This document shows, piece after piece, positions 42,016-64,000 of a stretch of DNA of 64,000 nt (position 1 is its first letter; every line of letters begins with the position of its first letter). A program made the translations under genes and the position numbers. The notes below the pieces were generated by a model, which had not been told where the DNA came from, searched no databases, and saw nothing but the letters and a program-made list of their open reading frames with translations. This DNA comes from a virus. The stretch covers positions 29,397 through 93,396 of the IMG/VR virus record IMGVR_UViG_3300007214_000060. One strand, given 5' to 3'.

Positions 42016-42037
42016 AATAATTCTTTCTTTTTAAAAA

Positions 42038-43693: not shown

Positions 43694-43697
43694 AATT

Positions 43698-45386: not shown

Positions 45387-45399
45387 AATTTATATCCTA

Positions 45400-47124: not shown

Positions 47125-50100
47125 TTATCCTCCTGGTGAACCTCTTGTTCTTAGGTCCATACCAGCATTTTTAATTTCTCCTCTTAATTTCTCAATCTCT
47201 GGCATTACTAGATCCTCCGCTAATTGCTTCATGGTGTCATTTAATGCCTTTAGCGGTGCTTCTCCAGTAAAGTTTACATTAATATTATATTCACCTTCTA
47301 GCTTATGAGTAAATGTTAAGCTCTCTAATCTAGATATATAATTTTCAAAATTTTGACCAAAACCGCCCAATGTTTCACTTAGTGTTTTATTAAATGAATT
47401 TAGGATTTCTGTAGATTTGTCATCTAAACTTAAACTATATATTAATGAGTTATCTGGACCACCAGTTTGTTGTGTTTGTTGAACGCCGGTTTCAGCAGCA
47501 GTAACATTGTTGAGGAAAGCTGTGTTAATTGGTTGAGCGCCCAAGTTCTGCATCGATGGTCCACCAGCTGAGGAGGCTGCAAAATTTGTTGTTGGAGCGC
47601 CTTGAGTTGGTGATACTGGAACGGCATTATTTGCTAAAACTTGTTGAGCTCGTGCTTTACCGGCTTCTTCTCTTTCTTTTCTAGCAGCATCTGCTCTTTG
47701 TTGAATTGCTATTGCTTGATCAATATCTCCGCCACCAAGAGCAAAATCTATTCTATCAGTACCAATATCTGCAACGTTAGATTGTGTTTCTTCAGCAGAC
47801 GTATTAGAAGCTTCTTCTATTTTTCTAGCTTCCATTTCTATTTGAGGCTTATATTTATCAACTAATTGTTGCTGAGGTTTGGTTAATTTTTCTCCAGCGC
47901 TCTGTTTTAGTTCTAATTTTCTCGCTCTCAAGAGTTCGGCATCTTGTTTCTTTTTTTCCGCCTCTGCTATTTTCGCTCTACGTTCTGGTGATAAAGTAGC
48001 CAGATAAGCTTGTCTTCTAGATTCTTTATTTTGTAAATAATTTGCTCTCCTTTGAGCTAACATAGATTGTCTGCGATTCATAGGTTTGCTAGTAATTGTT
48101 GGCGTGGATTGCTCAGAATCTTCCGATACTCTGGTTATACCCAATGGGTTATCAACGACTGGCTGTTCCGCTATTCTAGCTTGTGATTCTGTGACCGCTG
48201 GTGTTTGTTGTGTTGGTGCTGTCTGTGTTATTTGATCGGATGGTTTTTTGTCGTTAGTTGTAATCGCTTGTGTCGAGGGTGGTGTTGGAGATTTTAGAGC
48301 AAGCTGTTGTCGTTGAGCCTGCATAGCTTGTAAACCTTCTAGTTTAGCTTTAGCATCTTGATAAGCTTGAATATCTTCTGGGGCTCCTTGAAGGCCTTGG
48401 TTATATTCTGTTATTTTGCCGCGAGCTTGAAGCATTTGTTTATTAGCTTCTATAACAGCATCATTTAAATTTGTCGGTTCGGCTGTTTCTGGTTTGGTTA
48501 CATCTGGTGTTGAAGTAGACGATGAATTATTATTAACTAGTTGTTGTAATAGTGCTTCTGCGCGAGTGTCATGGGTGTATATGCTACCTGGTTTTGTTGC
48601 TTTGGTCGCCATATCTTCTATAGCGCTAATAGCTTGTGGATCACTGTTCTCTGTGGAGGCTTCGGAAGCTTGTTGACCAAGTTGAGACGATGGTTTTTGT
48701 TGATCTTTTTGAGGAAATAACTGTTGAACAACAGCAGCAAATCCTTGTGCTATAATTACTCCTATATTCAATAGTATGTTTGGATCAATTGAACTAAATA
48801 TTAGCGAAGCATCCATAAGTTGAGATGACGCTTGAGCCTGAGCTTCAGATTGTGGTTGTGGAGCAGACAGTCCTAATCTGTCCATTTCGGTCCTAGATTC
48901 TGCTAGATATAAGTCTGTGATCTGTGAGGTTGCTTGGTTGAATAGGTCTTTCTTACCGGAGGGTAGTCGTTCTGCGTCTTTTGCAAACCCGGCTCTGGTC
49001 TCTTTACGTTTAGCTATAAGCTCTTCCAAAGTATCTATGCCAAAACCTGTTTCTAGCTGTTGTAAATCTAGTTTAGCTAGTCCTATATCCGTGCCTTCTG
49101 CTAGTTGAGACACTTGCTGTAAGTCAAAACCTCTTGTTAATAGATCTTCTAAAATTTGAATTTGCGTATCAGCATACGCTATATCTTTTGCTAAGCCAAT
49201 ACTGCCTACACCGTCTGTCTCCGTTAGTTTGGAAACAGCAGACACATCAACACCGGCGGATGCTCCTCTCTCGCTGAAAGAGCCAGATATTGCCTCAGAC
49301 GCTCTGCTTTCTGCTCTGGCTGCGGCTAATGCTGTATCCACCATATGGGCTGTGTCTTTCATTAATCCTACTGTTTGAGTCACCCCTTGCCCTATAGTGT
49401 CTATTGGTCTGGTGAATCCAGCAGAGGCGTTTTGTAAACTTCCCATTACTAATCCAGCGTTCTCGATATTATCTAATTGAGTGGTGGACTCATCCCATTG
49501 CTTCACTTTGCCCCTAGGATCTCTTATCAATTCGGCTCCTGTGTAAAATGCATCAGCAGCAGTATTAATAGCTATTCCTGGCGCTCCTCCAGCCAATACG
49601 GCTCCAGCAGTAGCAAGATCTGCGCCTGTTTCATAAACCTCTCTACCGGTAGTTCCTCGTTCACCTATCGCCTCAGGAACTCCTAGTGCGTCTAGTCCTG
49701 TTCTTGCTAATCCAACACCAAGTTGCAAACCACTACCCCTAACAGCGGCACCTTGACCAACCACAGGTGTTAGAGCTGCTGTTGCCGCTGTATAAGACGC
49801 TAGAGACGTTCCCGTGTCTACTACGCCTTGAGTTGTTTGTTGCTGAATATCTCTTTCTTCAGCATTTAATCTTTGCTTTTCTGCTTCTGCTTCGGCCGCA
49901 GATCTTTCGCTTGCGCCAGCAAACATATCGACTGGTTCTGGCTTAACAACCGATACTTCTGGCTGTGGAACAAATCCTGAATTAGATAAGACCTGCGCTG
50001 TTAGCGCTTGCGGCGTTAGCGCTTGTGGTGTGAGTTGCTGAGAACCAAAAGGTATAGTTGGTAACCCATTACTAGATAGATTTTCTATATTAAGGGTGGC

Positions 50101-53100
50101 GTTGGTTATGTTCATTACAGCTTCTGACATAGCTAAAGTTTCAGCGGCTATTCTACCAGCTTCTGATTCTGTTGATGTAGACGCTGTGCCTTGACTAGTA
50201 GATGACGAGGCCGCTGTTGTTGATGTTGAATCGGAGGGTTCTTGTTTCACTGGCGCAATGCCTAGTGTTTCATCAAATAATGCTTGAGCTTCTTCTGTTT
50301 TTCCTTGAGCACTTAATTCTGTAATTGCTCTTGCTTGAGCCTGTATTTCTGCTGGAGTTCCGGTAGCACCTTGTTGCTGTAATTGTAAAGATGTTATACC
50401 AATATCTCTAACTCTTTGATCTTGCTCATAAGCCGAATCAGCCAACTCTTGTAGTTTTTTCTTTCTTTCGTCTTCTGTTAATGTTTTATCTTCTCTAATC
50501 GCTTTATCCTGAGCCATAAACTCCGGAGATTGAGCAGCTGATTTTCCTGCTGTTATAGCCGCAGCATTTATGTCAGCAAGTTGTTGCTTAGCCTCTGGCG
50601 AAGAGGTGTCTAATCCAACCTCTTGCGCCTCCAAAGTTAATTGGGCTAAAGCGTCATCACTATATTTCTTCTCCTCTTCTAATCTTTTTCTCTCATCTGC
50701 TATATATCTGTAGCCGCCGTATGCGGCTAAGCCCAATACCGCTAGTCCAGCAACACCAGCCGCTCTACCGGCGCGACCGCGGAATTTTACACCCCTACCG
50801 CCTTTAACCGATGGTTTAGGTTGTGGCAATTTAGATGGTGGCCCTTGTGCTCTGCGTTTTCCTGTTGGTGGTGCAGATGTTGCTGGCTTAGTCTGGGCGG
50901 CTGCCGCTGTGGCTTGAGTCGCGGCTGGCGTTGCTACGGTTTGGGTCGCCGCTGGCGCTGCCGCAGCCGGCGGCGCGGCTGTTGCTGCCGCGGTAGCTTG
51001 AGCCGCTGCTGGTACTGTTGTGGTAGGCGCTTGACCTCTTCTTGGCGGGGATGGTTGCGGTGTTGTCGCGGGTGCGCCCGGTTGTCTTCTTGGTGGTCCA
51101 GATGTTGCGGTTGGTTTTTGGGTGGCTGCTGCGGTAGCCTGAGCCGCTGCCGGCGCTGTTTGAGCAGGGCCGGTCGTGGTGGTTTTTGTGCTAGGTTTTC
51201 TACCACCTTTTCTTTTCTCTGCTTTAATCTGCTCATCAACTGTTCTAGCAGCTTTAGCTTTTGCTTCTTCTTTGCCAAGATTAGGATCTTCCGCTCTTAA
51301 TCTCTTAGTTTCGGCTTTTATTCTATCTTTTCTTTGGGCCGCTTCGACCTCGCGAACCTTAGCGGCTTCGGCTCTAGCTTGTGGTATCCCCGTCGCCCTA
51401 TAAATACGCCTCCCCCCTTCTACTGCTGCTCCTGCTACTATTGCTGCGCCTGCTGCGTCAACAGCCGCTCCACCGTATCCAGTAACTTCCGCGCCAAATA
51501 AACCAGCGACTTTGCTTTTATATGATTCTGATTTTGTTGTGTCTATTCCTTCCGGCTCTGCTCTGGGTTTTGGTGGAGGAGAAGCAACTCCAGCTTCAGC
51601 ATCTCTTTTTCTAGCTTCTTCTGCTGCTGTTTTAATATTTTCTAAATCAGCTGTAACAGCAGCATATGCTCTTTCTACTATAGTTGGATAGTCGCTATTC
51701 ATTCTTCTGAAAAATTCATCTATACCCTTTACTGACTCATTGAAATCAACCTGTTTTGGATCGGGTATTTTTAATTGTTCAGCAGCTTTTCTAATTGATT
51801 CCGCAATTTTTTCTCCGGCAGTTTTTTGAGCCTGTATAGCATCTCTATAGGCCTGTACCTGAGGATCTTCTTGATTATCTTGACCCCTAATATCTGCTAA
51901 GACTTCTTCCCAGCTTGTGCCGCTAATAAGCTCGTCCGTAAGTTTTATACCTTGTGCCTTAAGACTGCCTTCTAATAAATCAGCTCTTATTTTATTAAAC
52001 TGTTCTGGTTTTAATATGCCTTGTAGATCAGCTAAACCACCAAAAGCATCTTGTCTAGTTTGTCTACTTTGTAGCTTGGTAGGATTAGCAAGAGCCGCTC
52101 TTAAACCAGCGGCTCTAAACTGTGTTTCCTGAACATCAGCGGCGCTACCAGTTAGTAGTTTTTCTGTCAGATCTCCAACGGCCTTGCTTCTTTCTCTTTG
52201 TGCGGCGATCTTGCTAAGAGCATTGGATGCTCGCGTTCCGTCAGAAGCTAATTGATCTAGCGCTTGCGAACCATCATTAATAGCTCGCGAAAGATCTCCT
52301 TCTTCATTGATTAGTGCCTTAGTTTCAGCTTGTAATCTTTCAAATTCTACTTCATTTTGTGGATTTGCAGCTCCAAGAGCAGCAATTTGATCCTGTATTC
52401 CCTGTCTTTGTCCTCGTTTTTGCACTAATTCTGCCTGCTTATCTTGTATAGCGCCAGCTATTTCTTGTGGATCTGTTGATCCACCAGCAACAAGAGATGA
52501 CGTAAGATCTCTGATGCCCGCCTCAAACGGAGCATTTAATTGGTCTAGCGATAAGTCTCTGTCAAACACTTTTGCTAAGTCTAATTCTGCTGAGATTCCA
52601 ACTATATTAGCTTTTCTAAGAGCTTCGGCAGATTGTGAGATTAGCGTGTTATACTGATTCTGATATTGAATAGCTTTATCTAATAAATCATAATATGTTG
52701 ATACAAATTTCTGTAATTGCTGCGCACCATTATTTAGCGTTGTGCTTAGTTTTTCAAAATTACTAGCATCAACAGGCTTGCCGCTGTCAAGCTCTCCTCT
52801 TGCCTGATCCATAATTTCCTTAATCGCTGTTTGCGCTCCAGTAGATACCGTCCTATCTGGTCTTGCAACAGCAGCAGTTAATTGCCTTTGTAATTCGGCC
52901 ACTACTCCCTCGCGCCCACGAACATCTTCCCGATCATCTCCCGCAAAGTCTGCGGAAGCTTTTATAAGCTGTGGTAATTGATTTTGAAATACTCTAGCTA
53001 AATTAGCGGTGTTGGCTAATGCAACAGCTTGCTCTCCACCGCCGCCAAGAGTTGCTGCAAAATTAGCTGCTTGAGATACTTCTTCTGGAGAATATGCTGA

Positions 53101-56100
53101 TATATTACTTAAAACTCTTTCAAATTTTCTATCGCTTTTTTGAACCTCTGATTTTCCAGTAAGATCACCAACTCTGGCCTGAATATCAACATCTAGTTGT
53201 TCAAGCTCAGCTTTAAATCTGTCTGTAAAACTACCCACTCTATTGAACACATCATCCAGATTAGAAAATTCATTAGCTAAAACTTGAGTAGCTTTGGCTA
53301 GAGCAGCTTGTTTAGCTAATAATTTAGCATTTTCATCATTATAATATTGCCCAATTTTTATTGCTTGAGCTCTATCAGCATTAATCTCTTTACTAATTTG
53401 TTCATCGGTTGCTCCAGCTTCTTTTCTAGCTCTCATATATGAATCTAGAGCAGCTGTGTTTAGAGCCGTGGTTGTGATTTCTTGTTTTTGAGCAGCGGTT
53501 AAAACGTCGCTTCCTGTTTTTGCTTGTTGAGCAGCTGCGGCGGCGGCTAACATAGAATCAACATATTGTTGAGCTATAGGATTAAATTCGCTAGTTCCAG
53601 CGTTAAGCTCATCATATAATTTCATTAGTTGATCAACATTCAATTTTCCAAGGTCTCGCTCAGCAAATCTTGATGCGATATCCTGTTGTTTTCCTGCCTG
53701 ATTTACCAAAGCCCCAAGAGCTTCTTGTCTTTGTGCTGCGCTGGGTCGATTAAAAAATCCGTATGATCCACCAGCAATTCCGCCGATAGCTCCACCTATC
53801 GCAGCACCAACAGCTGTTCCTATTACGGGCACAACACTACCAGCAATTGCTCCAGCAACAGCGCCTCCAATTGCTCCAGCCACAGCGGTACCAGCTATAC
53901 CTCCAGCGTCTCCAGCAGTTAGTGTAGAGCTACCAAGAGCTAAACTTCTAATATCACCACTAGCTTGGATAACATCTCCAAATGCTTTTTGAGCATTTTT
54001 AAAGTTAACATCATTAGCTGTTTGGGCCAAATTTTTAAGAGCAATATCCAGTTCGCCAGTAGTTGATGCTATTTTTTCCAAAGCATTAATTAGTATTTGT
54101 TGATTTTTAGCACTAAAGAAGCCTTGAATACCACCAATAACAGCTCCTCCAATTCCAGCAACCAAAGCACCAACCGGGCCAGCAATTTGAGCGCCAAGCA
54201 CAGCGCCACTAGCAGCTCCTGTGCCAGCACCACCCAAAGCTCCAACAGCACCAGCAACATTAACGTTGGAAGATAGTGCTGGCGCGTAATTTTTAAGACC
54301 TTGTTGTAATTGATCTGCTATTAATGTTGCTCCAGCCCCAACGCCAGCTATTCCTCCAACATTAGCAAAAGCTTGACTAAATCTACCACCTTTACCGCTG
54401 ATAAAATCTGCTCCAGCGCCAAGAACTCTACCACCCCTACTTTCTGAGAATTTGCCAAGCATACCTGGCGCAAATTGAGCAAGAGCGCCGAACCTTTGAC
54501 CTTCTCTGCTCTGAACAAAGCTCTGTCTAGCGACCTCTTTCGCACTATCTCCAGCCTCTCCAAATTCTCTTTCTAAAAGATCAACAGATATGCCCAATTT
54601 TTTCGCAGTATTAAGCATAGCGACCCTGAGAGCATCCGCCCCTTCAGGAGCTGATCCTATAGCGTCTGTAAATGCTTTTTGAGCAGCGGCTAGATCGCCT
54701 GAACCTAAACTTTCTGCTACTGTTTCTGCTGATGCTCTTAGCTCTTTCATTTTTTCTTCGGAGTCACCAAGCGTTGGATTTAGCTCAACCATTTGCTGAA
54801 CTATGTTATCTGTTTCTGCTGCTAGTCTTTGATTAATTGATGCTAACTCTACGGTTGCCGCTTGTTTTTCCTCAGCAGTTCCTCCACTACTAGTAATGGT
54901 TGCTTGGGCCTTTGCTCTTGTTTGAGCTAAATTTTTAAGAGTATCTTGTTGTAAAAATAATTTATTAGAAGCTTCTGCTTTTCTACCCTCAAATTGAGCT
55001 CCTGATGCTTCAAATCGCGCCCTACCTAGTTCTTTTGCTATTCCTAACTTAACCGCTCTAACATTTGTTCCGTCTGTTTGTGCTCTGTATTCAAAAAATG
55101 CATTATCTGATAATTTTTGTTGTTCGGCCAGAATTCTTGGGTCGGTTTGAGTAGCTGACGGTTTTGATGGATATAGAGTTTCTTTTTTATTTTCAGCTCG
55201 CTCTTTTTCTGCTCTAGCGAGTTCCAAAGCTCTGTCTGCTTCTTGAACTTCACTAATGTCGAAAGATTGAGTCTTACCACTTTTATCAGTAATTTGTCCA
55301 GTATTGCGTACTTGTTCTATTGCTTTAGCTTTGTTTTTATCGCTTAAATTTTCCCAATCAGTAACCCTAGCTCTTAATGAGTTCAACAGATTCTGCTCTG
55401 CTTGTCTCACTTTATCTTGAGCATCGGCTTCCAATTTCGAAGCGGTAGAAACCTGAGCAGCAACGCCAGAATAAGACCCTTCGGCAGCCTCTATAGCGGC
55501 ATTTAACTCTACTATTTTTTGAGCACTTGTTTTTATTTGGTCGTTAAGCAATATTGCTTCTCCGCCAGTAGCAGTAGAAGCTCTAGATTCTAGTTCAGAT
55601 TTATTTTTTTGTTCTGATGATAATTCTGATTGTTTTTGAGATATAAAATCTCTAGCCGAGATATTGAAGTCTTCCATATCTTTAGCTTTACCAAATCCTT
55701 TATCTCTTTCACTCACTCTGCTCGCTAAATTTTTTTTATTATTTTCTATATCTTGTAGATACCGAGGATTAACTGTTATATCATCTCCTGTATCTAACCT
55801 TGCCTTTCCACCTGTTCTTGTGACCTCTTGTAAGATTTCTTCCACTTTAGAGTCGCTAGGTTTTCTTCCTGTTATGGCTTCAAATTCTGCTCTAATAGAG
55901 TCTCTTAGCACTTTACCAGTTTCAGCTATGTCTGACTCAAAGGCGTTGATAGCATCTGTTAAACTATTAAACTCGGTTTCTATACCATTAACTATAATTT
56001 CCAATTGAGAAATGTCTTGTACTACAGATTCCATTTCATCTGTTATCTTTTGTTTTTCTTCTGGAGTACTAGCAGCGGTTCTTTGTTGTTCTAGTTGTAG

Positions 56101-59100
56101 ACGTTTTGCTCGCTTTGACTCTAACAAGAATCGTTTGTCTTGTAATTCTTTACCTTTCTCTCCAATATCTGATATTCCTCCTGTAGATCCGCTAGCAAAC
56201 TTTCTAATTCCAATGTTTCCTCCTCTACTAAATCCCAGAGCATCCATAGCTCCTTTTCTGATAACATAACCACCAGTAGGCAAACTAATCGGACCAATAC
56301 TATCACTGGTTCCGCTACCCGGACCCTTGAATACGCTTATGCCACCACCGCCAGAAAAACCTCTCATACCATTACGATCAGCTTGATTTATTCTGTCTAA
56401 TTTTGCATATCCTATTTTTTTAGCTACTGTGGGAGGAACAAAACCCTCTCCGTTACTAACCATAGCAGCAACACCGCCACCGGAGAATCTACCAATAGGA
56501 CCACCCATGTTTCTAGACAAGAAACTAGCCTGTTGCATCTGTATAAACTTGGAATATTTAGGATCGTTGAGATCCACTACATCTGGATCATTAATAAACT
56601 GTTGAGAGTTTTTGCTGTATCCACTTTGTAATATCCAAGCAGGATCATTAGCTGGTGGCCAAGTTTCTGGTTTTCCATATAATTTAGGATCTAATAATGA
56701 ATTATTTTTAACCCAATATTTAGGATCTAATGGCGTCTTTTTAATAGAAGATCTTGCGAAAGCATTTGCCCAATATCTTTGAGCGTCTTGACTCACCATA
56801 TTTCTGTCAGGTGTTAGCATACCCCCTAATTGGCTAACCTTTTCTATAACCAATTCGTACAGATAAGGACCAAATCCACCAGTAGCTCCAGATAAACCTA
56901 CAGAAAAAATATTATCTCCTAATTTTTTAGCTGTTACGGAGCCTGATCTATCAGAGTTTTTAAAGTACGTTGCAATAACTTCCGATCCAGAAGATCTTAT
57001 ACCAGCCTTTCCAAAAATTCCAGATTGTTTCTTTTTTATTAATTTATCTAATAAAGGATCCTCTGATATATCTTCAAGAGAACTAGATTCTGTTTTACTT
57101 TTGAGTTCTTCTTCTATCCAATCGTTTATATGAGGCAATAAGTTGCCAGCAGTATCGAACGATGATGTATTATTAGTTCTATCCTTGCGCTTAAATTCTT
57201 CTATCCAATCTTCTTTAGTACTAAATTTTGGTTTGTCTACAACGCCACCTATATTAAATTTTTGTCTTTGTACTCCACCAGCAGCAAATAATTCATCTAA
57301 TGTTGATTGTAGTATGCCATTAAGATTACTATCTAATATTGGATAATTCTGTAATAATGTTGTTAAAAATTCCTCTTTACCCATATCCTCTAATTTATTG
57401 ATTCTAGAGTCCTCTACGCCAAGCATTTTTAGTGTAGAATTAACAACAGGATTCAGAGTCTTAAATGGTTTTGCTGTTGTTACAGCATCAGCAGCCCGTC
57501 TAATGTCCATCGATCTGGTTAGTAATTCTTGATTTTCTGGCTTTTGCTCTCTGAGAAGAGCTGTTTGTTGAGATGATAGTGCTCCTATTTTATAACTTCT
57601 ACCATAAGCTATATCAGCACTCTTATAATTAGCGCCCGGTAGAGCATCAATAGCTTGAGCCACATCATCATTATCTCCATCAAATAATGAAACAACTCTA
57701 GTTTTGTATTTATCAAAACTTTCTGGAACCCTGGTTTTAAAAGTACTTAATAACTGATGACCTAGTTCGTGATATAAACTAGAAGCCGGTGCTCCTGCTC
57801 CGAACATCGAAAGTTTAGTTTTAAATCCAATAGTTCCTCGTCCAGTAGTTTCCGCAACACTCTTAGCATTCGCCCTAGCAGCTTTTTCGGCTGTTAATTT
57901 AGCGTCCTTTAGATTAAATAATCGGTCTTTAAGAACTCTTAATTCTTCATTAGCTTTTGTAGCAGCTTCGTAGTCGTAAGAAAAGCTACCATCTTCAAAA
58001 GTTTTAACAGGCTTTTTGATAATTCTCTTGATCTCTTTTTCTTTTTCTTTTATTAGTGCTTGAATACCATACAAATCCTGCTCTTGAGCTTCTGACCATC
58101 CAAAATTTTCAAGACTATAAGCTTTTCTATTCAAACTTGGATTTGGATCAAAGTATGCGGTTGATATGCCGCCACTGGGCTGGTCAAAATCTACAACCTG
58201 TGGTAAATAGTCAATTAATGATTCTGATGGTAAACCAATAAATTTCGCAAAGTCGCTCATTCCGCTAATCAGCGTATTTCTTGATAATCTTTCTTTGAAA
58301 CTGCTTTTAAACCTCTCTAAATCAAGAGGAGAGGAATCATATGCTTCTCTCATTCCTAATTCATCAACCCTAACAGTAGTGTCTTTGAGAGCGAATCCAG
58401 CCCTTGCATCAAACTCCTCAAAAGATGTCATCTTATCTAATTCTTTAAAATAAGCATTAGAGATTCGTTTGGGGAATGGGAAAGTTCCGGTTCCGAATGA
58501 TCTTTGAGGAGCTTTTACTGCACCTCCGGCCATATATCCTTGTGCTCTTAGATAGTTGGTAATATTACTAATCATATCACCAGCACCACTCAGTGTATAT
58601 TTGGCGTCTGTTGGTAATGTCACGAACATCCCACCATCGTTAAATAATCCGGCTGCTTGAGATCCTAATCCTTGTGGAAAGTCTATAGATTGTCGATCTG
58701 TATTTCTAATTGCCCCTAATTCTTGTAGTATATTTTGAAATAAAACACCTTTCGCCGTGTTTGCTTCTGATCCTTTGGGTTGGCCATATGGCATCAAATA
58801 GCTTTTACCCCTCAAGCCCTCTCCTCTAATAGTTTCGGCTACTCCAGCAACATTTGCTGGATCATCATCAACAAACGATCCTCCTCCTAATTTTTGGACT
58901 ATAGCAGCTTTAAGCTTAGGAATAGAAGAACCGCTAACATTCGCTCCTCCAACACCATAAATATTTTCTAGTGGTATAGGAAGACCAACACTATCTAACC
59001 ATTCTTTAATAAGAGGAGCAGTAGTTTGTGATCTAGCAGTATTAATAAACATTCTGTTTAGGAGTTCACTAGATCCTGATGATTTTACAAGATCAGCTAA

Positions 59101-62100
59101 TGATTGACCAAAAGGACTCAGCGACGAAGATCGTAATGCTTCTCTAACTTTATCCAGATCTTGGAATTCAGAAAACATGGGTGCGCCCGGATCAGATGAT
59201 ATAACATCAGCACCATAATTAATAACTTTATCAAAATCACTAATTAATTTATCTCCACCGACTATGTCATCTAAAATTTGAGCTATAGTCATTTGCTGAG
59301 CAGCACCCATTATAGTGGATTCATAACCAGTATCTATTTGACTTTGCATCAGTGCCTTAAACTTATCGTTAGCTAATCTTCCACTTATATTAACTGTTAC
59401 TGGATTTTTAAGCCTATCACTAAGAACTCTTACCTCGTTAGAATATGGATTGCCAGCAAGTCCAACAGCACCGAAAGCTAAGCCTTTCTGGGAGATTCCT
59501 CCCATAGTTGCGGCATATTGTGCATTGATAGCATCTATGAGCACTTGTTTAGCTGCTTTATTAGATCTTAATATTGTTGTTGTTCCCTGTATCTTATCTT
59601 TGCCTAGATCAAAGCCTTCTTTTTGCAATAATGCTATTGCTGGACTTATACCGCCAACCCTACTAATAAGTTCACTACCAGCCATCTTCATAGATGCTTG
59701 TTTTATATCAACCTTTTTTGGCCCAACTTTTGCTTTTGATGTTGCTGTTTTTGCTGCTTTGGCGGCTTTTGCTTTGGTTTTTTGGGCCACAACCTCTGAT
59801 GGTTTTGCAACAGCGGGAATTGCTGAGAGCGGTGTGGCAGATGGCCTAGTAGAAAAATCCAAGCCATACTGATCAGGTTTAGCGGCTGCAAGTTTGGCTA
59901 AAAGTCTATATGGTTCAAATTGAGCGCCAGTTCTTATCTTATCTCTTTTATCTCTAAGTTGTCTTAATACTTCTGCTTTAGCGGCGTATTCTGGATCTTC
60001 TTTCTCTGTAGTTTTATTGATTCTACTTATTCCTAAAGCTTCGATTTGTTGTTCTATTGCTTTTAATGATAGCTGTTTATTTTTTTCTACTTCGGCTATT
60101 ATATTAGGAAGAACACTAGCTCTATTTTGTATTCTTCCAATATTTCTAGAAATCATATCATAAACTGGTGGACTTAAAACTTTTTGTAGTTCAGCAAGAT
60201 TTCCTTCTTCTATTAATTTTCTAACAAGCGTACCACTAATACCGCCGCTGCGCTCAAGATTAACGGTTTCGTATCCGGCCTTTATATATTTTTCAAGATC
60301 CTGTTCCGTTTTCTCCGCAACAAAAGCTGTACTTCCTGGAGCTGGCACAACTACTCTTCTTCGTCCATCACTTTCTCCAATATCAAAACCTTGAGGAACT
60401 TCAAAATCTCTTGGTTTTGGTATTACTGTTGCTCCTTTTGATCCGAATCCTGCCTTTGCCAATAATATTCTAGCATCTTGATCAAAAATTGCTGTTCTAT
60501 AATTATATTCTCCATCTTTGTCTTTAGTAATTCCTTCATCGGAACCAACTAATGCTATAAAATCTTCGGGAGGTATACCATAAGCAGCAGCTGAATCAAC
60601 TATGCTCTCATGACCAGCTGTTGTTGGAGCATATCCTCCCCATGTGAAACCTATTCTCTTTTTAATAATCTCAACTAATTCGTTTCCACTTTTTCTTCGC
60701 AATCTTCCGCTCTCTGTTCGTCCAAGAACTACTGATCTTTTTCCAAGAGCATCCCCCAACAGTGCTTCTCCAACAGCTGTATCTCTACCTACCCCAGAGG
60801 TTGTGCCTGGTCTTCTACCCTCTAAGCCTATTCCTGTGGTATCCCTACTAGTTCTTTGTGCCTTTATTCTTTCTTGCTCAGTTGCTGTTGTTGAGCTTAA
60901 TGTATAAGCTCTATCAACCTCACTTAAAAATCCTTCTAATTTATCTCGTGATACGCTACTAGTCAAGATCAATATTTCATTTGCTTTTTCAATATCTTCT
61001 GGGGTTAATATCGGAAAACGAGTAGTTTCTCGTAGCGTTCCAACATCTGTTCCTTGACCTCGTGCTAGTGTTGTTTTTCCACTTCCAGCAACACCATATA
61101 TAGCTCGAAGCTTATCTAATTTTTTGCTTTTTCTAGCTTTAACAGCAAGGTCGGTCAGGTAATCTGCATATAATCGTGGTCCAGTTACTCCGGCCTTTTT
61201 CATTCCGGCCTCGACAACTCCGGCATTAGCCTCATTAGCTATAACATCATAATCAATATATCCAAGATTTCTTTGTACTTTTCCTCCAGCCATAAAGCTT
61301 TTAACTTTACCACCCGATCTTAACATTTTAGTTGTTAAATCCAATTTTGTTTTTTCAAATTCTTTATCATCCTCTCCATAATATAATTCATATAAAGTTC
61401 CTAGACTCAGTCCGCCTGTTGACCCTACACCTCCTGGTTTTTTGCTTTTTAAATCTTTTGAAAAACTACTACTAACTGTTCCGCTAGCTCTTGTTATCTT
61501 AAAACCAACATTTGGAGGAATAATAAATTCTTTTTCTTCATCATAATTTTCTAATTTTTTCTCACTAATTTTTTCTAGTCCCGGGAGTCTACGACTTTTC
61601 TCTGCTGCTTGTTGATTAACTTTTGTTTTATTTTTTGCTTTTACAATGTCTATAGTTTTTTGAGCTGTTGAACTTCCATCTATATTTAGTAAAGCTCCAG
61701 GATTTTGCACAAAAGCTTCTGCTTGAGATTTATCCGCACTAACAGATAAGAATGTTGGAAAGTCTACTGTTTTTCCAACTAAATTTTTGAGAGTTTCTGA
61801 TGGTTTAGATGATAATTCTTTTGGTGTTATTTCAGTATCACTTAATATTTCTTTTAATTGGCTTCTTCCTAATCCACTATATGTTTTTTTAGGTATTTTA
61901 AATTGGCTAGCTGCTAATAATCTATCTCTAATATCTTGTGTTTGATATCTTTCTCCTCTGGGATCTGTGAATGTTTTTTTATCAGAAGCTAATGCTTTTG
62001 TGAATGGTCCACTTCCAGCTTGGTAATATGTTATAGCATCGAGCATCTCTTGGGTATCGTATTGGTCAGTTGATTGTAATCCGGGTCCTTTACGATTAGC

Positions 62101-64000
62101 AAATTTTTGTTTTTCTATTTCTTTTCTAGCTACTATATAGTCTTCTATAGCTTTGATTCGTTGTCTTGCTTCTCTTTTGCCAATATCTTCCATTTTACCA
62201 TTATCAAATGTGTTAGCTGGTAATGGCCCTTCACCAAGATCATATAAGTCTAAAATAGAGTACAAATACATCATCTCTTCATTTAATTCTTTATCGGGAT
62301 AGCGTTGCATCCTTTTTACCCAACCACCATCAAGAAACTTTTGAACTAATCCACCAGACCTTAGCAGTGTTGCTGATCCAGATGTGCTACTGCCTGCATA
62401 ATTATTATCAATTAACCATTTATTAAATTCTGTTTTATATCCAGGTATTCTATTTTTACCAATTTTTGTGTCTGCGGCAGCGGCGGCTGTTATACTTCCA
62501 AGATTTATATCGTCTATGTCGTTTAGATTATCTTCTCCAAAATGATTAAAACTCTTTGGTAGTGTTGAACCAAAGGTTGTTTTTCTATTTTCCAAATTAT
62601 ATCTTAACAATCTACCAGCAAAAATAGCGTCTTGAGCTTTACTAGGAGCATCCACAAACTTGCTTTCTATAAGTTCACCAGTAGCATTATCTATAAGATC
62701 AACAGAAGCATTACTTATGTTACCGCTACCGCTTCCAGTTCCAGGATATTTTACAGTCCTCAATCCGGTGGTTCTAGAGCTATTTATTTTTTCTTGTAAT
62801 GCTTCCTCAAAAACAACACCACCACTATTAGTAAATCGATAGTGATTGCTTCCTTTTTCTTTTTTTGTTAATACTGCAAACCTGGGGTCATTTTTAAAGA
62901 TCACGCCTCTTTTTTTCATTCTCTCAACAAGATCAGGAAAATCACTGCTGGTAAAACCATAATCACTAGGATCTTTTCTAGTAATATTAGCTTCAAGTTT
63001 ATCGTTATCTTCTATATAATTTCCTGATTGTTTCATAAAAGCATTTATTGGAGCTGCATTACCTCCCTTTTTTGATTCGGCAACGCCTCCTGTCCAATAT
63101 TTATTCATATTATGCAGTCTTTTTGCTCCAATAGATTCAACAGCTTTCTTTCTTATAACAAACTCTCCAGGCTCAAGCATTGCCGGAACCTTGTCTCCTA
63201 TGCCGGTTCCTGGAACAACCCCGCCCCTATTGAATGCTAATACTTTACCTCCATCTCTTAATGTCGCAGATCCGCGTGACCCTATCCGAGCAGCGAGCAT
63301 ATTAATGCTTTGGGTTAGAGTATTAAGAGCATCAGTATTCATCTTAATTAGATCGTTTGCTCTCGAAACAGTTTCTGCTTTTTCTTTTTCCCTTGTTCCG
63401 CTAATAGCGCCGCCGATATTTGATCCTGTTTTACGAGCGCCAGCTTTTGATAGTTGTCCAAAAAATCCTCCGCCAAATTCTGTTAGCGCCTTAACACCTT
63501 TTACGGCTCCTATAATTCCTAGTATTGGAATTATCGGTTTAAACGCACCAGCTAAACTAATTAATCCACTAGCTAAATTTGTGACTATTGTGAATAAAGT
63601 ATTGAAAGCTTTACTCTGACCTATATCTCTAATCAAAGCTAAGAATTGCTCCCTGACGCGAGCAAGTTGATTCGCCAAACTTTGTTGAGCAACGATCTGA
63701 GCGTCAGTGAGACTACCTTGACCTCTTTGAGCAACACCTAGTGCTTTTTGCGCTGTTTCGAATTGTTGAATAAGTGGAATAACTTTACCAATTTGACGAA
63801 AGCCACCAAGCTCTTCTACTATAGAACTAAATCTAATATCTCTAGGGTCTAAATTAGCTAGTCCTTCGCTCAATCTACGAATAGCTTCGAAGGGGCCAAC
63901 GAATTTACCTTCTAAATCTTGTAGCTCTATGCCAAAGCCTCTGAGTTGTTTGATTGTATCTGCTCTTTGAATTCTTGTAAAAATAGTTCTTAAACCAGTA
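47125..64000 (-). CDS. Giant tape measure protein (TP901-like core) with embedded multi-enzyme cassette; 5'-truncated, more than 5,600 aa
   Basis: Frame open to window edge (TGLRTIFTRIQRADTIKQLRGFGIELQDLEGKFVGP...), resembling the TP901 TMP core; PAMLEPGEFVI and GPGSGTSDSI TMP motifs; coiled coils; Gly-zipper hydrophobic segments; followed by tail-tip genes. Confidence 0.85.
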   Translation of the reverse strand, partial: TGLRTIFTRIQRADTIKQLRGFGIELQDLEGKFVGPFEAIRRLSEGLANLDPRDIRFSSIVEELGGFRQIGKVIPLIQQFETAQKALGVAQRGQGSLTDAQIVAQQSLANQLARVREQFLALIRDIGQSKAFNTLFTIVTNLASGLISLAGAFKPIIPILGIIGAVKGVKALTEFGGGFFGQLSKAGARKTGSNIGGAISGTREKEKAETVSRANDLIKMNTDALNTLTQSINMLAARIGSRGSATLRDGGKVLAFNRGGVVPGTGIGDKVPAMLEPGEFVIRKKAVESIGAKRLHNMNKYWTGGVAESKKGGNAAPINAFMKQSGNYIEDNDKLEANITRKDPSDYGFTSSDFPDLVERMKKRGVIFKNDPRFAVLTKKEKGSNHYRFTNSGGVVFEEALQEKINSSRTTGLRTVKYPGTGSGSGNISNASVDLIDNATGELIESKFVDAPSKAQDAIFAGRLLRYNLENRKTTFGSTLPKSFNHFGEDNLNDIDDINLGSITAAAAADTKIGKNRIPGYKTEFNKWLIDNNYAGSSTSGSATLLRSGGLVQKFLDGGWVKRMQRYPDKELNEEMMYLYSILDLYDLGEGPLPANTFDNGKMEDIGKREARQRIKAIEDYIVARKEIEKQKFANRKGPGLQSTDQYDTQEMLDAITYYQAGSGPFTKALASDKKTFTDPRGERYQTQDIRDRLLAASQFKIPKKTYSGLGRSQLKEILSDTEITPKELSSKPSETLKNLVGKTVDFPTFLSVSADKSQAEAFVQNPGALLNIDGSSTAQKTIDIVKAKNKTKVNQQAAEKSRRLPGLEKISEKKLENYDEEKEFIIPPNVGFKITRASGTVSSSFSKDLKSKKPGGVGSTGGLSLGTLYELYYGEDDKEFEKTKLDLTTKMLRSGGKVKSFMAGGKVQRNLGYIDYDVIANEANAGVVEAGMKKAGVTGPRLYADYLTDLAVKARKSKKLDKLRAIYGVAGSGKTTLARGQGTDVGTLRETTRFPILTPEDIEKANEILILTSSVSRDKLEGFLSEVDRAYTLSSTTATEQERIKAQRTSRDTTGIGLEGRRPGTTSGVGRDTAVGEALLGDALGKRSVVLGRTESGRLRRKSGNELVEIIKKRIGFTWGGYAPTTAGHESIVDSAAAYGIPPEDFIALVGSDEGITKDKDGEYNYRTAIFDQDARILLAKAGFGSKGATVIPKPRDFEVPQGFDIGESDGRRRVVVPAPGSTAFVAEKTEQDLEKYIKAGYETVNLERSGGISGTLVRKLIEEGNLAELQKVLSPPVYDMISRNIGRIQNRASVLPNIIAEVEKNKQLSLKAIEQQIEALGISRINKTTEKEDPEYAAKAEVLRQLRDKRDKIRTGAQFEPYRLLAKLAAAKPDQYGLDFSTRPSATPLSAIPAVAKPSEVVAQKTKAKAAKAAKTATSKAKVGPKKVDIKQASMKMAGSELISRVGGISPAIALLQKEGFDLGKDKIQGTTTILRSNKAAKQVLIDAINAQYAATMGGISQKGLAFGAVGLAGNPYSNEVRVLSDRLKNPVTVNISGRLANDKFKALMQSQIDTGYESTIMGAAQQMTIAQILDDIVGGDKLISDFDKVINYGADVISSDPGAPMFSEFQDLDKVREALRSSSLSPFGQSLADLVKSSGSSELLNRMFINTARSQTTAPLIKEWLDSVGLPIPLENIYGVGGANVSGSSIPKLKAAIVQKLGGGSFVDDDPANVAGVAETIRGEGLRGKSYLMPYGQPKGSEANTAKGVLFQNILQELGAIRNTDRQSIDFPQGLGSQAAGLFNDGGMFVTLPTDAKYTLSGAGDMISNITNYLRAQGYMAGGAVKAPQRSFGTGTFPFPKRISNAYFKELDKMTSFEEFDARAGFALKDTTVRVDELGMREAYDSSPLDLERFKSSFKERLSRNTLISGMSDFAKFIGLPSESLIDYLPQVVDFDQPSGGISTAYFDPNPSLNRKAYSLENFGWSEAQEQDLYGIQALIKEKEKEIKRIIKKPVKTFEDGSFSYDYEAATKANEELRVLKDRLFNLKDAKLTAEKAARANAKSVAETTGRGTIGFKTKLSMFGAGAPASSLYHELGHQLLSTFKTRVPESFDKYKTRVVSLFDGDNDDVAQAIDALPGANYKSADIAYGRSYKIGALSSQQTALLREQKPENQELLTRSMDIRRAADAVTTAKPFKTLNPVVNSTLKMLGVEDSRINKLEDMGKEEFLTTLLQNYPILDSNLNGILQSTLDELFAAGGVQRQKFNIGGVVDKPKFSTKEDWIEEFKRKDRTNNTSSFDTAGNLLPHINDWIEEELKSKTESSSLEDISEDPLLDKLIKKKQSGIFGKAGIRSSGSEVIATYFKNSDRSGSVTAKKLGDNIFSVGLSGATGGFGPYLYELVIEKVSQLGGMLTPDRNMVSQDAQRYWANAFARSSIKKTPLDPKYWVKNNSLLDPKLYGKPETWPPANDPAWILQSGYSKNSQQFINDPDVVDLNDPKYSKFIQMQQASFLSRNMGGPIGRFSGGGVAAMVSNGEGFVPPTVAKKIGYAKLDRINQADRNGMRGFSGGGGISVFKGPGSGTSDSIGPISLPTGGYVIRKGAMDALGFSRGGNIGIRKFASGSTGGISDIGEKGKELQDKRFLLESKRAKRLQLEQQRTAASTPEEKQKITDEMESVVQDISQLEIIVNGIETEFNSLTDAINAFESDIAETGKVLRDSIRAEFEAITGRKPSDSKVEEILQEVTRTGGKARLDTGDDITVNPRYLQDIENNKKNLASRVSERDKGFGKAKDMEDFNISARDFISQKQSELSSEQKNKSELESRASTATGGEAILLNDQIKTSAQKIVELNAAIEAAEGSYSGVAAQVSTASKLEADAQDKVRQAEQNLLNSLRARVTDWENLSDKNKAKAIEQVRNTGQITDKSGKTQSFDISEVQEADRALELARAEKERAENKKETLYPSKPSATQTDPRILAEQQKLSDNAFFEYRAQTDGTNVRAVKLGIAKELGRARFEASGAQFEGRKAEASNKLFLQQDTLKNLAQTRAKAQATITSSGGTAEEKQAATVELASINQRLAAETDNIVQQMVELNPTLGDSEEKMKELRASAETVAESLGSGDLAAAQKAFTDAIGSAPEGADALRVAMLNTAKKLGISVDLLEREFGEAGDSAKEVARQSFVQSREGQRFGALAQFAPGMLGKFSESRGGRVLGAGADFISGKGGRFSQAFANVGGIAGVGAGATLIADQLQQGLKNYAPALSSNVNVAGAVGALGGAGTGAASGAVLGAQIAGPVGALVAGIGGAVIGGIQGFFSAKNQQILINALEKIASTTGELDIALKNLAQTANDVNFKNAQKAFGDVIQASGDIRSLALGSSTLTAGDAGGIAGTAVAGAIGGAVAGAIAGSVVPVIGTAVGAAIGGAIGGIAGGSYGFFNRPSAAQRQEALGALVNQAGKQQDIASRFAERDLGKLNVDQLMKLYDELNAGTSEFNPIAQQYVDSMLAAAAAAQQAKTGSDVLTAAQKQEITTTALNTAALDSYMRARKEAGATDEQISKEINADRAQAIKIGQYYNDENAKLLAKQAALAKATQVLANEFSNLDDVFNRVGSFTDRFKAELEQLDVDIQARVGDLTGKSEVQKSDRKFERVLSNISAYSPEEVSQAANFAATLGGGGEQAVALANTANLARVFQNQLPQLIKASADFAGDDREDVRGREGVVAELQRQLTAAVARPDRTVSTGAQTAIKEIMDQARGELDSGKPVDASNFEKLSTTLNNGAQQLQKFVSTYYDLLDKAIQYQNQYNTLISQSAEALRKANIVGISAELDLAKVFDRDLSLDQLNAPFEAGIRDLTSSLVAGGSTDPQEIAGAIQDKQAELVQKRGQRQGIQDQIAALGAANPQNEVEFERLQAETKALINEEGDLSRAINDGSQALDQLASDGTRASNALSKIAAQRERSKAVGDLTEKLLTGSAADVQETQFRAAGLRAALANPTKLQSRQTRQDAFGGLADLQGILKPEQFNKIRADLLEGSLKAQGIKLTDELISGTSWEEVLADIRGQDNQEDPQVQAYRDAIQAQKTAGEKIAESIRKAAEQLKIPDPKQVDFNESVKGIDEFFRRMNSDYPTIVERAYAAVTADLENIKTAAEEARKRDAEAGVASPPPKPRAEPEGIDTTKSESYKSKVAGLFGAEVTGYGGAAVDAAGAAIVAGAAVEGGRRIYRATGIPQARAEAAKVREVEAAQRKDRIKAETKRLRAEDPNLGKEEAKAKAARTVDEQIKAEKRKGGRKPSTKTTTTGPAQTAPAAAQATAAATQKPTATSGPPRRQPGAPATTPQPSPPRRGQAPTTTVPAAAQATAAATAAPPAAAAPAATQTVATPAATQATAAAAQTKPATSAPPTGKRRAQGPPSKLPQPKPSVKGGRGVKFRGRAGRAAGVAGLAVLGLAAYGGYRYIADERKRLEEEKKYSDDALAQLTLEAQEVGLDTSSPEAKQQLADINAAAITAGKSAAQSPEFMAQDKAIREDKTLTEDERKKKLQELADSAYEQDQRVRDIGITSLQLQQQGATGTPAEIQAQARAITELSAQGKTEEAQALFDETLGIAPVKQEPSDSTSTTAASSSTSQGTASTSTESEAGRIAAETLAMSEAVMNITNATLNIENLSSNGLPTIPFGSQQLTPQALTPQALTAQVLSNSGFVPQPEVSVVKPEPVDMFAGASERSAAEAEAEKQRLNAEERDIQQQTTQGVVDTGTSLASYTAATAALTPVVGQGAAVRGSGLQLGVGLARTGLDALGVPEAIGERGTTGREVYETGADLATAGAVLAGGAPGIAINTAADAFYTGAELIRDPRGKVKQWDESTTQLDNIENAGLVMGSLQNASAGFTRPIDTIGQGVTQTVGLMKDTAHMVDTALAAARAESRASEAISGSFSERGASAGVDVSAVSKLTETDGVGSIGLAKDIAYADTQIQILEDLLTRGFDLQQVSQLAEGTDIGLAKLDLQQLETGFGIDTLEELIAKRKETRAGFAKDAERLPSGKKDLFNQATSQITDLYLAESRTEMDRLGLSAPQPQSEAQAQASSQLMDASLIFSSIDPNILLNIGVIIAQGFAAVVQQLFPQKDQQKPSSQLGQQASEASTENSDPQAISAIEDMATKATKPGSIYTHDTRAEALLQQLVNNNSSSTSTPDVTKPETAEPTNLNDAVIEANKQMLQARGKITEYNQGLQGAPEDIQAYQDAKAKLEGLQAMQAQRQQLALKSPTPPSTQAITTNDKKPSDQITQTAPTQQTPAVTESQARIAEQPVVDNPLGITRVSEDSEQSTPTITSKPMNRRQSMLAQRRANYLQNKESRRQAYLATLSPERRAKIAEAEKKKQDAELLRARKLELKQSAGEKLTKPQQQLVDKYKPQIEMEARKIEEASNTSAEETQSNVADIGTDRIDFALGGGDIDQAIAIQQRADAARKEREEAGKARAQQVLANNAVPVSPTQGAPTTNFAASSAGGPSMQNLGAQPINTAFLNNVTAAETGVQQTQQTGGPDNSLIYSLSLDDKSTEILNSFNKTLSETLGGFGQNFENYISRLESLTFTHKLEGEYNINVNFTGEAPLKALNDTMKQLAEDLVMPEIEKLRGEIKNAGMDLRTRGSPGG
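56520..57240 (-). other. TMP-internal domain: GNAT-like acetyltransferase
   Basis: GGFGPYLYELVIE...GMLTPDRNMVSQDAQRYW. Confidence 0.6.
57300..58520 (-). other. TMP-internal domain: zincin metallopeptidase
   Basis: LYHELGHQL at 57757-57771; downstream KEEF. Confidence 0.65.
58810..59250 (-). other. TMP-internal domain: HAD-superfamily phosphatase
   Basis: LISDFDKV (I), INTAR (II), K (III), FVDDDPAN (IV). Confidence 0.7.
60150..60670 (-). other. TMP-internal domain: HIGH-superfamily nucleotidyltransferase (NMNAT/CoaD/cytidylyltransferase-like)
   Basis: FTWGGYAPTTAGH and ISGTLVRKLI...LSPPVYDMI. Confidence 0.75.
60700..61120 (-). other. TMP-internal domain: P-loop kinase
   Basis: AIYGVAGSGKTTLAR at ~61069-61095; lid-like QRTSR. 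Confidence 0.7.
61490..62050 (-). other. TMP-internal domain: ADP-ribosyltransferase (R-S-E class, VIP2/Alt-like)
   Basis: AITYYQAGS, KTYSG, FPTFLSVS, EKEFII. Confidence 0.7.
62365..63084 (-). other. TMP-internal domain: PD-(D/E)xK nuclease-like
   Basis: GVVFEEAL...SVDLID...LIESKF. Confidence 0.55.

Follow-up and report, generated by a model that had tools for sequence, protein, structure and literature searches.

A giant tape measure protein of a freshwater phage that may double as the carrier of a polyvalent enzyme string

The gene considered here encodes a giant tail tape measure protein with an internal cassette of enzyme-like modules. It lies in 64,000 nucleotides (nt) of viral DNA (“the window”; positions 29,397 to 93,396 of the IMG/VR virus record IMGVR_UViG_3300007214_000060), and its closest described counterparts are enzyme-fused tape measures and the polyvalent proteins. 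The Thermus phage P23-45 (as well as P74-26, G20c and TSP4) produces a 5,002-residue tape measure, gp96, which bears at its N-terminus the virion RNA polymerase that transcribes the pre-early genes, and the authors term this link between tape measure and polymerase a “previously unsuspected association” (Chaban et al. 2024, PMC10770324). Phages and conjugative elements also encode polyvalent proteins, which are mosaic multi-enzyme polypeptides predicted to be injected with the DNA (Iyer, Burroughs, Anand, de Souza, Aravind 2017, PMC5512222); tape measures are nowhere mentioned in that paper. The tape measure pb2 of phage T5 forms a trimer that is metastable in the tail tube, is cleaved from its enzymatic part (pb2*, pb2C) and is expelled at receptor binding, possibly refolding thereafter (Linares et al. 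2023, PMC10038345). Gly-zippers are common to tape measures and the type VI secretion system effector Tde1, where they are required for translocation across the cytoplasmic membrane (PMC10240207). Finally, Sle1-type effectors of actinobacterial contractile injection systems are related to tape measures and harbour exchangeable functional domains (Nagakubo et al. 2026, PMC13277306), and fusions of MuF and VIP2 are already known from phage heads (PMC7302621). Full-text literature searches on tape measures with enzymatic or effector domains found no description of an enzyme cassette in a tape measure.

The protein encoded in the window is a TP901-type tape measure, in which about 2,300 residues, organized as a chain of separately folding modules, are set between copies of a repeated Gly-rich motif. 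Six of the seven modules carry catalytic residues that are invariant in 13-34 relatives, showing that these motifs are under constraint. The same six (S2, S3, S4, the HAD domain of S5, S6 and S7) are modelled by AlphaFold2 with predicted local distance difference test scores (pLDDT) of 75-97, and Pfam and PHROGs families match modules in relatives. Furthermore, the modules are freely gained, lost and reordered among more than 100 related proteins, with the breakpoints at linkers. The separate folding of the modules and their shuffling among related phages together make it probable that enzymes already synthesized reach the host in the tail along with the DNA. On balance, we lean towards regarding the protein as a phage tail tape measure that doubles as the carrier of a polyvalent enzyme string.

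The gene occupies a single, uninterrupted minus-strand frame at 47125-63999 (5,624 codons, 16.9 kb), with its stop codon at 47125-47127. The window and the single 93,396-bp contig stop at the same base, and the gene accordingly lacks its 5' end; joining the contig ends did not extend the frame. A full-length form of 5,948 residues, P0002, is present in the protein collection, and its initial 324 residues lie outside the contig. Residues are numbered here on P0001, which comprises the 5,624 residues present, such that residue n begins at window base 63999-3(n-1). Searching with the cassette alone retrieved 107 proteins of 3,200-7,700 residues, including the window's own P0002, and the frequencies given with the features refer to this set.

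47125..63999, minus strand: gene for the giant tape measure protein, 5,624 of 5,948 codons in the window, 5' end truncated.
63262..63999, minus strand: C-terminal part of the TP901-type core (residues 1-246 of P0001) with a hydrophobic segment at 63481-63600; core in 102 of 107 proteins.
63100..63261, minus strand: M1, the first copy of the Gly-rich motif (GGxVxxFxxGGVVPGxGxGDxVPAxLxPGEFV; residues 250-285); in 97 of 107.
62355..63099, minus strand: S1, an orphan module and candidate PD-(D/E)xK nuclease (residues 301-548; E398, D434, E446-x-K448); in 3 of 107.
61315..62322, minus strand: S2, an ADP-ribosyltransferase module (residues 560-895) with the fold core at residues 638-844 (61468-62088); in 19 of 107.
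60670..61281, minus strand: S3, a P-loop NTPase domain (Walker A GVAGSGKT, residues 969-976), always immediately before S4; in 72 of 107.
59860..60669, minus strand: S4, a HIGH-signature nucleotidyltransferase (PxTxGH, residues 1125-1130; ISGTLVR, residues 1254-1260) with a C-terminal helical extension; in 70 of 107.
59710..59859, minus strand: Ala/Lys/Pro-rich low-complexity spacer (residues 1381-1430), without homology to relatives.
58534..59709, minus strand: S5 (residues 1431-1822), comprising a small helical domain, a long helix, a HAD phosphatase and a poorly modelled tail; HAD fold core at residues 1581-1737 (58789-59259); HAD part (S5a) in 31 of 107.
57280..58512, minus strand: S6, a zincin-like module (residues 1830-2240; YHELGHQ, residues 2076-2082; SADxxYGRxYK, residues 2127-2137; EDxGKEEF); in 37 of 107.
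56509..57252, minus strand: S7, a GNAT-like module (residues 2250-2497; VGLSxATxGYGPxLY, residues 2367-2381); in 54 of 107.
56164..56508, minus strand: M2, two further, weaker motif copies that close the cassette (residues 2498-2612); in 84 of 107.
47128..56163, minus strand: ruler, long helical and low-complexity, with Gly-zipper membrane segments, a stretch rich in Pro, Thr and Ala, and a final hydrophobic segment; partly common to relatives.

The assignment to the TP901 type is carried by the relatives. Most of the giant relatives listed harbour a precomputed PF10145 domain, and the source annotation of several reads TP901 tape measure. The match to PF10145 in the window itself reaches an E value of 1.3e-3 only (profile positions 136-190), and it is weak because the core is truncated. 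The core of the relative L036 shares 73% identity with that of the window; this relative matches TIGR01760 with 94.2 bits at a cut-off of 28.8, and the GenBank phage matches of its core are exclusively tape measures of SPbeta-like and Bacillus megaterium siphoviruses (22-25% identity). Scans of the whole tape measure protein with Pfam and PHROGs returned almost no matches, and globular families had none in the ruler part. Hydropathy peaks at residues 134-173 (63481-63600), at residues 3210-3410 (53770-54372), where the Gly-zippers are located, and at residues 5065-5095 (48715-48807). In the favoured reading, ruler and channel functions fall to the N-terminal TP901-type core and the C-terminal, helical and membrane-inserting part of 3,000 residues. 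The ruler also contains a low-complexity stretch rich in Pro, Thr, Ala and Gln with repeated AAAQATAAAT units (about 50500-51500, residues ~4170-4500); its G+C content is 0.54, compared with about 0.38 in the surroundings, and a hydrophobic segment comes after it.

The M1 and M2 regions are 33% identical across 79 residues, the latter region containing two copies of the motif. The initial annotation of this DNA, made from the letters and a list of open reading frames, had proposed a tape measure protein with an enzyme cassette between two motif copies. The single frame, the TP901-type core and the chain of globular modules bear this out, and both copies lie where they had been placed: GGVVPGTGIGDKVPAMLEPGEFVI corresponds to residues 258-281 of P0001 (nt 63157-63228) and GPGSGTSDSIGPISLPTGGYVI to residues 2559-2580 (nt 56260-56325). 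The flanking hydrophobic segments it had named were likewise recovered at 63481-63600 and, as Gly-zippers, at 53770-54372, and a further one was found at residues 5065-5095. Its designation of the repeat as a tape measure motif holds within the family, given the frequencies of M1 and M2 above, whereas a tblastn search of the M2 region against 50,697 GenBank phage records yielded no match and does not show the motif to be general among tape measures. An alignment of related tape measures, which it had suggested as a check, revealed a conserved core and a variable cassette content.

Within the cassette, the module borders are marked by short linkers, i.e., doublets of a hydrophobic residue followed by xxGG, nine residues apart, at residues 546/555, 893/902 and 2238/2248, and a single such word at residue 1822. 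Seventeen of these words occur in the cassette versus three in the remaining 3,260 residues. In sequence, the doublets are similar to the M motif's first half, and homologous modules of relatives start and stop at the same linker peptide. At the DNA level, no repetition of the linkers was found within the tape measure gene. The sole module border without a GG linker is that between the nucleotidyltransferase and the HAD module, where the spacer at residues 1381-1430 has a histone-H1-like composition.

The modules were analysed with two AlphaFold2 models (A and B), which used alignments of 40 and 54 sequence pieces from related loci. MAFFT misplaces fragments when the input contains giant proteins or the M2 motif; the inputs were trimmed and the placement of fragments was checked. 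The relatives compared for catalytic motifs are 30-70% identical. The lists of the fold searches were filled by the nucleotidyltransferase and the ADP-ribosyltransferase (model A) or by the HAD domain (model B), and S3, S6 and S7 were barely tested; because the lists are saturated by other domains, missing entries for these three modules say little. Searches with phmmer and profiles against PDB sequences gave nothing for the cassette, S3 plus S4, S6 or S7; GenBank phages, at the DNA and protein level, contained no match to the cassette, S3 plus S4 or M2; and NCBIfam, searched module by module, had none. Single-sequence scans of IMG/VR for S1, S5 and S7, as well as an alignment-based scan for S1, retrieved no loci.

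Three modules are confirmed by fold, profiles and motifs alike, and in each case the class agrees with the initial annotation. Module S2 is predicted to be an ADP-ribosyltransferase with the features of the R-S-E clade (C3, VIP2, Alt-like) except for the catalytic Arg. Structure searches support the fold (pLDDT 75-95), PF03496 matches S2 in 10 relatives (best E value 5.6e-7), and the S-x-S (FLSVS) and E-x-E (EKE) residues S752, S754, E822 and E824 are invariant in 13 of 13 sequences. The predicted HIGH-type nucleotidyltransferase S4 adopts a Rossmann-like fold with its motifs present, the PxTxGH and ISxTxxR signatures being essentially invariant; Foldseek returned PPAT at an E value of 2.3e-5, and PF16581 matches S4 in 29 relatives. 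No single substrate class is favoured, as NaMN/NMN adenylyltransferases and PPAT are tied within one Z unit in the structure ranking. A match to TmcAL also spans the C-terminal helices of S4, and the Pfam matches correspond to the C-terminal region of TmcAL. The third module, the HAD domain of S5, is modelled with a pLDDT of 83-96 as a HAD phosphatase closest to the T4 Pnkp phosphatase, its best structural match. The DxDx(T/V) motif (DFDKV), TAR and DD are invariant in 29 of 29 sequences, and relatives of the HAD part match PHROGs named deoxyribonucleotidase and polynucleotide kinase.

For S3, S6 and S7 the classes that had been proposed, i.e., a P-loop kinase, an HExxH zincin and a GNAT, fit in part. 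The P-loop of S3 is supported by motif and model: G972 and K975 of the Walker A motif are invariant in 34 of 34 sequences, and strands and helices alternate in a confident model (pLDDT 80-95); a structural match was not seen in the lists filled by other domains, and the assignment as a kinase, suggested by sequence, is unproven. Modules S3 and S4 (residues 907-1380) form a single unit without an internal linker and are always adjacent and in the same order in relatives. The motif of S6 and a confident model (pLDDT 90-97) support a putative zincin, the HExxH lying inside a predicted helix; H2077 and E2078 are invariant in 18 of 18 sequences, H2081 is kept in 18 of 19, D2129, Y2132 and G2133 are kept in 18 of 18, and the EDxGKEEF motif is likewise invariant. 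Its SADxxYG motif resembles the GTxDxxYG signature of aspzincins. In S7, which is modelled equally well (pLDDT 90-97), the order of strands and helices and the GxG loop are consistent with a GNAT (G2375 in 17 of 17 sequences, G2377 in 16 of 17), and we term the module GNAT-like, its identity as a GNAT not being proven. Neither S6 nor S7 had a match in Pfam, among PDB sequences or in the fold lists, which the HAD domain filled.

The two nuclease-like domains that had been proposed fared differently. The orphan module S1 remains a candidate PD-(D/E)xK nuclease by motif and strand order: its motif residues lie on a predicted helix-strand-strand-strand-helix unit, and E398, D434 and E446-x-K448 are kept in the relative L031, while the model lacks confidence (pLDDT 25-50). 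A weak Atlas lead points to the restriction-endonuclease-fold toxins Tox-REase-9/-7 (0.87-0.89). Carriers of S1 comprise only three clusters among 1.84 billion representatives, all of them giant tape measures, and a word-based search found no free-standing homologues. A 24-nt tandem duplication (88% identity) at 62666-62713 on the minus strand (residues 429-444) encodes NASVDLID and NATGELIE, and the proposed D and E-x-K strands of S1 are thus two copies of one 8-residue unit. The second nuclease-like domain was not recovered: the tail of S5 (residues 1738-1822) is modelled with a pLDDT of 40-50, and a nuclease-like strand order was not found in it.

The shuffling of modules is seen directly in the relatives. 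Among the 106 relatives, 37 different module orders occur, and none repeats the full module set of the window, while several are collinear with the window protein from S3 to M2. A scan of IMG/VR with an alignment of the core identified 446 stretches encoding the core, of which 80 loci were kept, and many of these harbour none of the window's modules between M1 and M2. A rough split at the linker doublets followed by clustering yielded about 70 module families; ten representatives of the commonest foreign families had no Pfam match. The relatives P0011, P0016, P0009 and P0073 carry precomputed EF-hand domains (PF13202, PF00036) or PF03983, and one is named a thermonuclease-family endonuclease by its source; these annotations hint at further types of cargo. 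A near-relative metagenome contig (run X1, depth 11) joins 61263 to 62412 and omits 1,148 nt, i.e., the ADP-ribosyltransferase module and one linker. This is a weak hint only, given the short flank and the repeated nature of the linkers.

A carrier of this kind might function as follows. The protein would sit in the lumen of the tail in a metastable, largely unfolded state and would be expelled at infection with its C-terminus leading. The Gly-zipper segments of the ruler would open the membrane or envelope, and the cassette-bearing N-terminal half would enter last, right before the DNA, and refold in the cytoplasm. The delivered enzymes would be active prior to phage gene expression: the ADP-ribosyltransferase would modify host proteins, and the set of putative kinase, transferase and phosphatase would act on nucleotides, on cofactors of the NAD type or on broken RNA ends. 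This set could serve cofactor salvage, as do NadR and CoA synthase, or RNA end repair, as does Pnkp, and the data choose neither.

Several points weigh against a role as carrier. Three copies of seven folded domains of 25-45 kDa are too big for a tail-tube lumen of about 4 nm, and since the folded modules do not fit, the model depends on their being unfolded or staggered. As to position, the cassette lies inside the protein and at neither of its ends, and the zincins of other tape measures are cell-wall enzymes. At the position of the canonical NAD-binding Arg (Y/F-R-G, after the aromatic residue of strand 1), S2 reads Y-S-G, with Ser in 11 of 13 and Ala in 2 of 13 sequences, and an Arg four residues further on is present in only 5 of 13. 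The modules S1, S3, S6 and S7 are without a confirmed fold match, and periplasmic acid phosphatases are among the structure matches of the HAD domain, with Z scores no more than about 1.5 below that of the best match. Neighbouring genes do not reveal the tail type: those in the window and upstream in L036 match no tail family. Lastly, delivery of the cassette into the cytoplasm is unproven and leans on the precedents of P23-45 and T5.

The alternative that survives best, unlikely as we consider it, is a polyprotein expression platform: the modules would be made late as part of the tape measure, cut out at tail assembly, and act in the producing cell or be discarded, without any delivery. Every module is bounded by conserved linkers, the window protein contains a zincin, and excision would be in keeping with folded modules too large for the tube. 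Moreover, T5 pb2 and other tape measures are processed in morphogenesis (PMC10038345). However, the cleaved enzymatic part of T5 remains in the tail and is then expelled, and the fused enzyme of P23-45 functions in the next host. An ADP-ribosyltransferase and conflict-type modules that are made only late would also be hard to explain unless they are packaged. A general role of the S6 zincin as a linker protease was rejected, because the module is optional and is missing from 24 relatives with at least three other modules. In this particular protein, the zincin may be a processing enzyme, or a cell-wall peptidase as in other tape measures.

According to a second and still more improbable explanation, the modules are envelope-acting cargo that, as is usual for enzymes of tape measures, works in the periplasm or on the wall and aids penetration rather than takeover, the zincin being a peptidoglycan peptidase and the HAD domain an acid phosphatase. 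Yet the ADP-ribosyltransferase, the P-loop domain and the HIGH nucleotidyltransferase require cytoplasmic NAD+ or ATP, the best match of the HAD domain is the cytoplasmic T4 Pnkp phosphatase, with deoxyribonucleotidase and polynucleotide kinase as the PHROGs of relatives, and family scans of the protein detected no wall-hydrolase families.

We give little credence to the notion that the modules are decayed passengers, i.e., inert spacers that merely lengthen a very long tail ruler. Tail length is indeed set by the length of the tape measure, S1 and the tail of S5 model poorly, and the ADP-ribosyltransferase is without its Arg; on the other hand, globular domains are poor rulers, the models are compact and confident, and the catalytic motifs are invariant over the divergent relatives. 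Finally, a misjoining of the cassette to the tape measure gene during metagenome assembly, which might be suspected as the whole stretch is present in no public run (best word share 0.22; the contigs obtained are short and from near relatives), is ruled out by the breadth of relatives. Core, M1, modules, M2 and ruler recur in one frame in over 100 proteins that come from different assemblies and sources, and some of these are collinear with the window protein from S3 to M2; the frame is open over 16.9 kb.

If the cassette does travel with the tape measure, long-tailed phages would possess a second and highly modular injection route for ready-made enzymes, beside the proteins packed in the head. 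The dozens of module families in the 446 core-encoding stretches of IMG/VR would then make up a large and so far unexploited collection of enzymes for early host takeover and counter-defence, and the tape measure would offer a natural scaffold to load proteins into phage tails. A structural question is also raised, namely, how each chain, with over 250 kDa of globular domains, is stored in a tail tube and threaded through it. A bolder extension, which we put forward as doubtful, is that the tape measures of a large and widespread group of aquatic phages constitute a general, reconfigurable platform for protein injection, in which the joint peptide permits enzyme swaps. In the case at hand, the S3-S4 pair would come in together with the DNA, as would the Pnkp-like phosphatase, and they would rebuild NAD-type cofactors or mend cut tRNA, thus pre-empting abortive-infection defences before phage genes are expressed.

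The source phage is an uncultured freshwater virus. Its matches in genome collections are all aquatic metagenome-assembled genomes of mixed phyla, which probably represent mis-binned phage contigs and point to no nameable host. The sizes on record for the contig disagree (93,396 vs 93,605 bp), and no RNA runs containing the stretch are listed among public runs. Immediately downstream of the tape measure gene, at 39253-47115 on the minus strand, lie four large genes encoding proteins of 571, 562, 551 and 920 residues, which presumably belong to the tail tip or fibres and are of a kind not yet described. Tail families of PHROGs and Pfam were found neither in these four genes, where PHROGs gave one weak match, nor in the ten genes upstream in L036; in the window, the region upstream of the tape measure gene is cut off by the contig end. 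On the opposite strand and distant from the tape measure gene, the plus-strand gene at 837-3578 encodes a 913-residue protein, whose N-terminal 85 residues match N-terminal families of tail fibre or minor tail proteins (phrog_31660, E value 2.4e-12). A ribonucleotide reductase gene is located at 14749-16941 on the plus strand (phrog_367, E value 6e-107).

Compared with the systems outlined at the beginning, the window protein resembles P23-45 gp96, likewise a tape measure of giant size, whose N-terminal half holds an enzyme active in the cytoplasm of the newly infected cell and is followed by membrane segments and a metallopeptidase; for the cassette, cytoplasmic action is inferred. The polymerase motif DFDGD is absent from the window protein, and sequence similarity to gp96 was not seen. 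While gp96 carries a single enzyme, the RNA polymerase, the window protein harbours seven unrelated modules that are bounded by motifs and shuffled among relatives. With polyvalent proteins it shares a mosaic architecture, a predicted role in injection with the DNA and disparate domains in one phage polypeptide (an ADP-ribosyltransferase and nucleotide enzymes, together with GNAT-like, zincin-like and candidate nuclease domains). The class is characterized by at least two disparate activities, and the cassette combines ADP-ribosyltransferase, HIGH and HAD folds with P-loop, zincin and GNAT-like motifs. The Pfam polyvalent-protein domains and head-linked anchors such as MuF appeared in no scan, apart from one BFVD entry, “Large polyvalent protein-associated domain 3”, at a probability of 0.09. 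Moreover, the phage examples of polyvalent proteins are tied to head- or portal-associated domains, whereas the carrier proposed here is a tail ruler with one conserved joint peptide.

Like T5 pb2 and the tape measures with wall hydrolases, the window protein has its enzymatic part built into the tape measure and contains hydrophobic segments that would form the channel; pb2, in contrast, has one enzymatic domain only, which is muralytic, C-terminal and active in the periplasm, and the internal multi-enzyme cassette includes recognisable members that use cytoplasmic cofactors. By description, the Sle1-type effectors also combine a tape-measure-like carrier with an exchangeable domain and loading inside a tail-like tube, but they belong to bacterial nanomachines and have one functional domain per protein, as opposed to seven modules in a phage protein.

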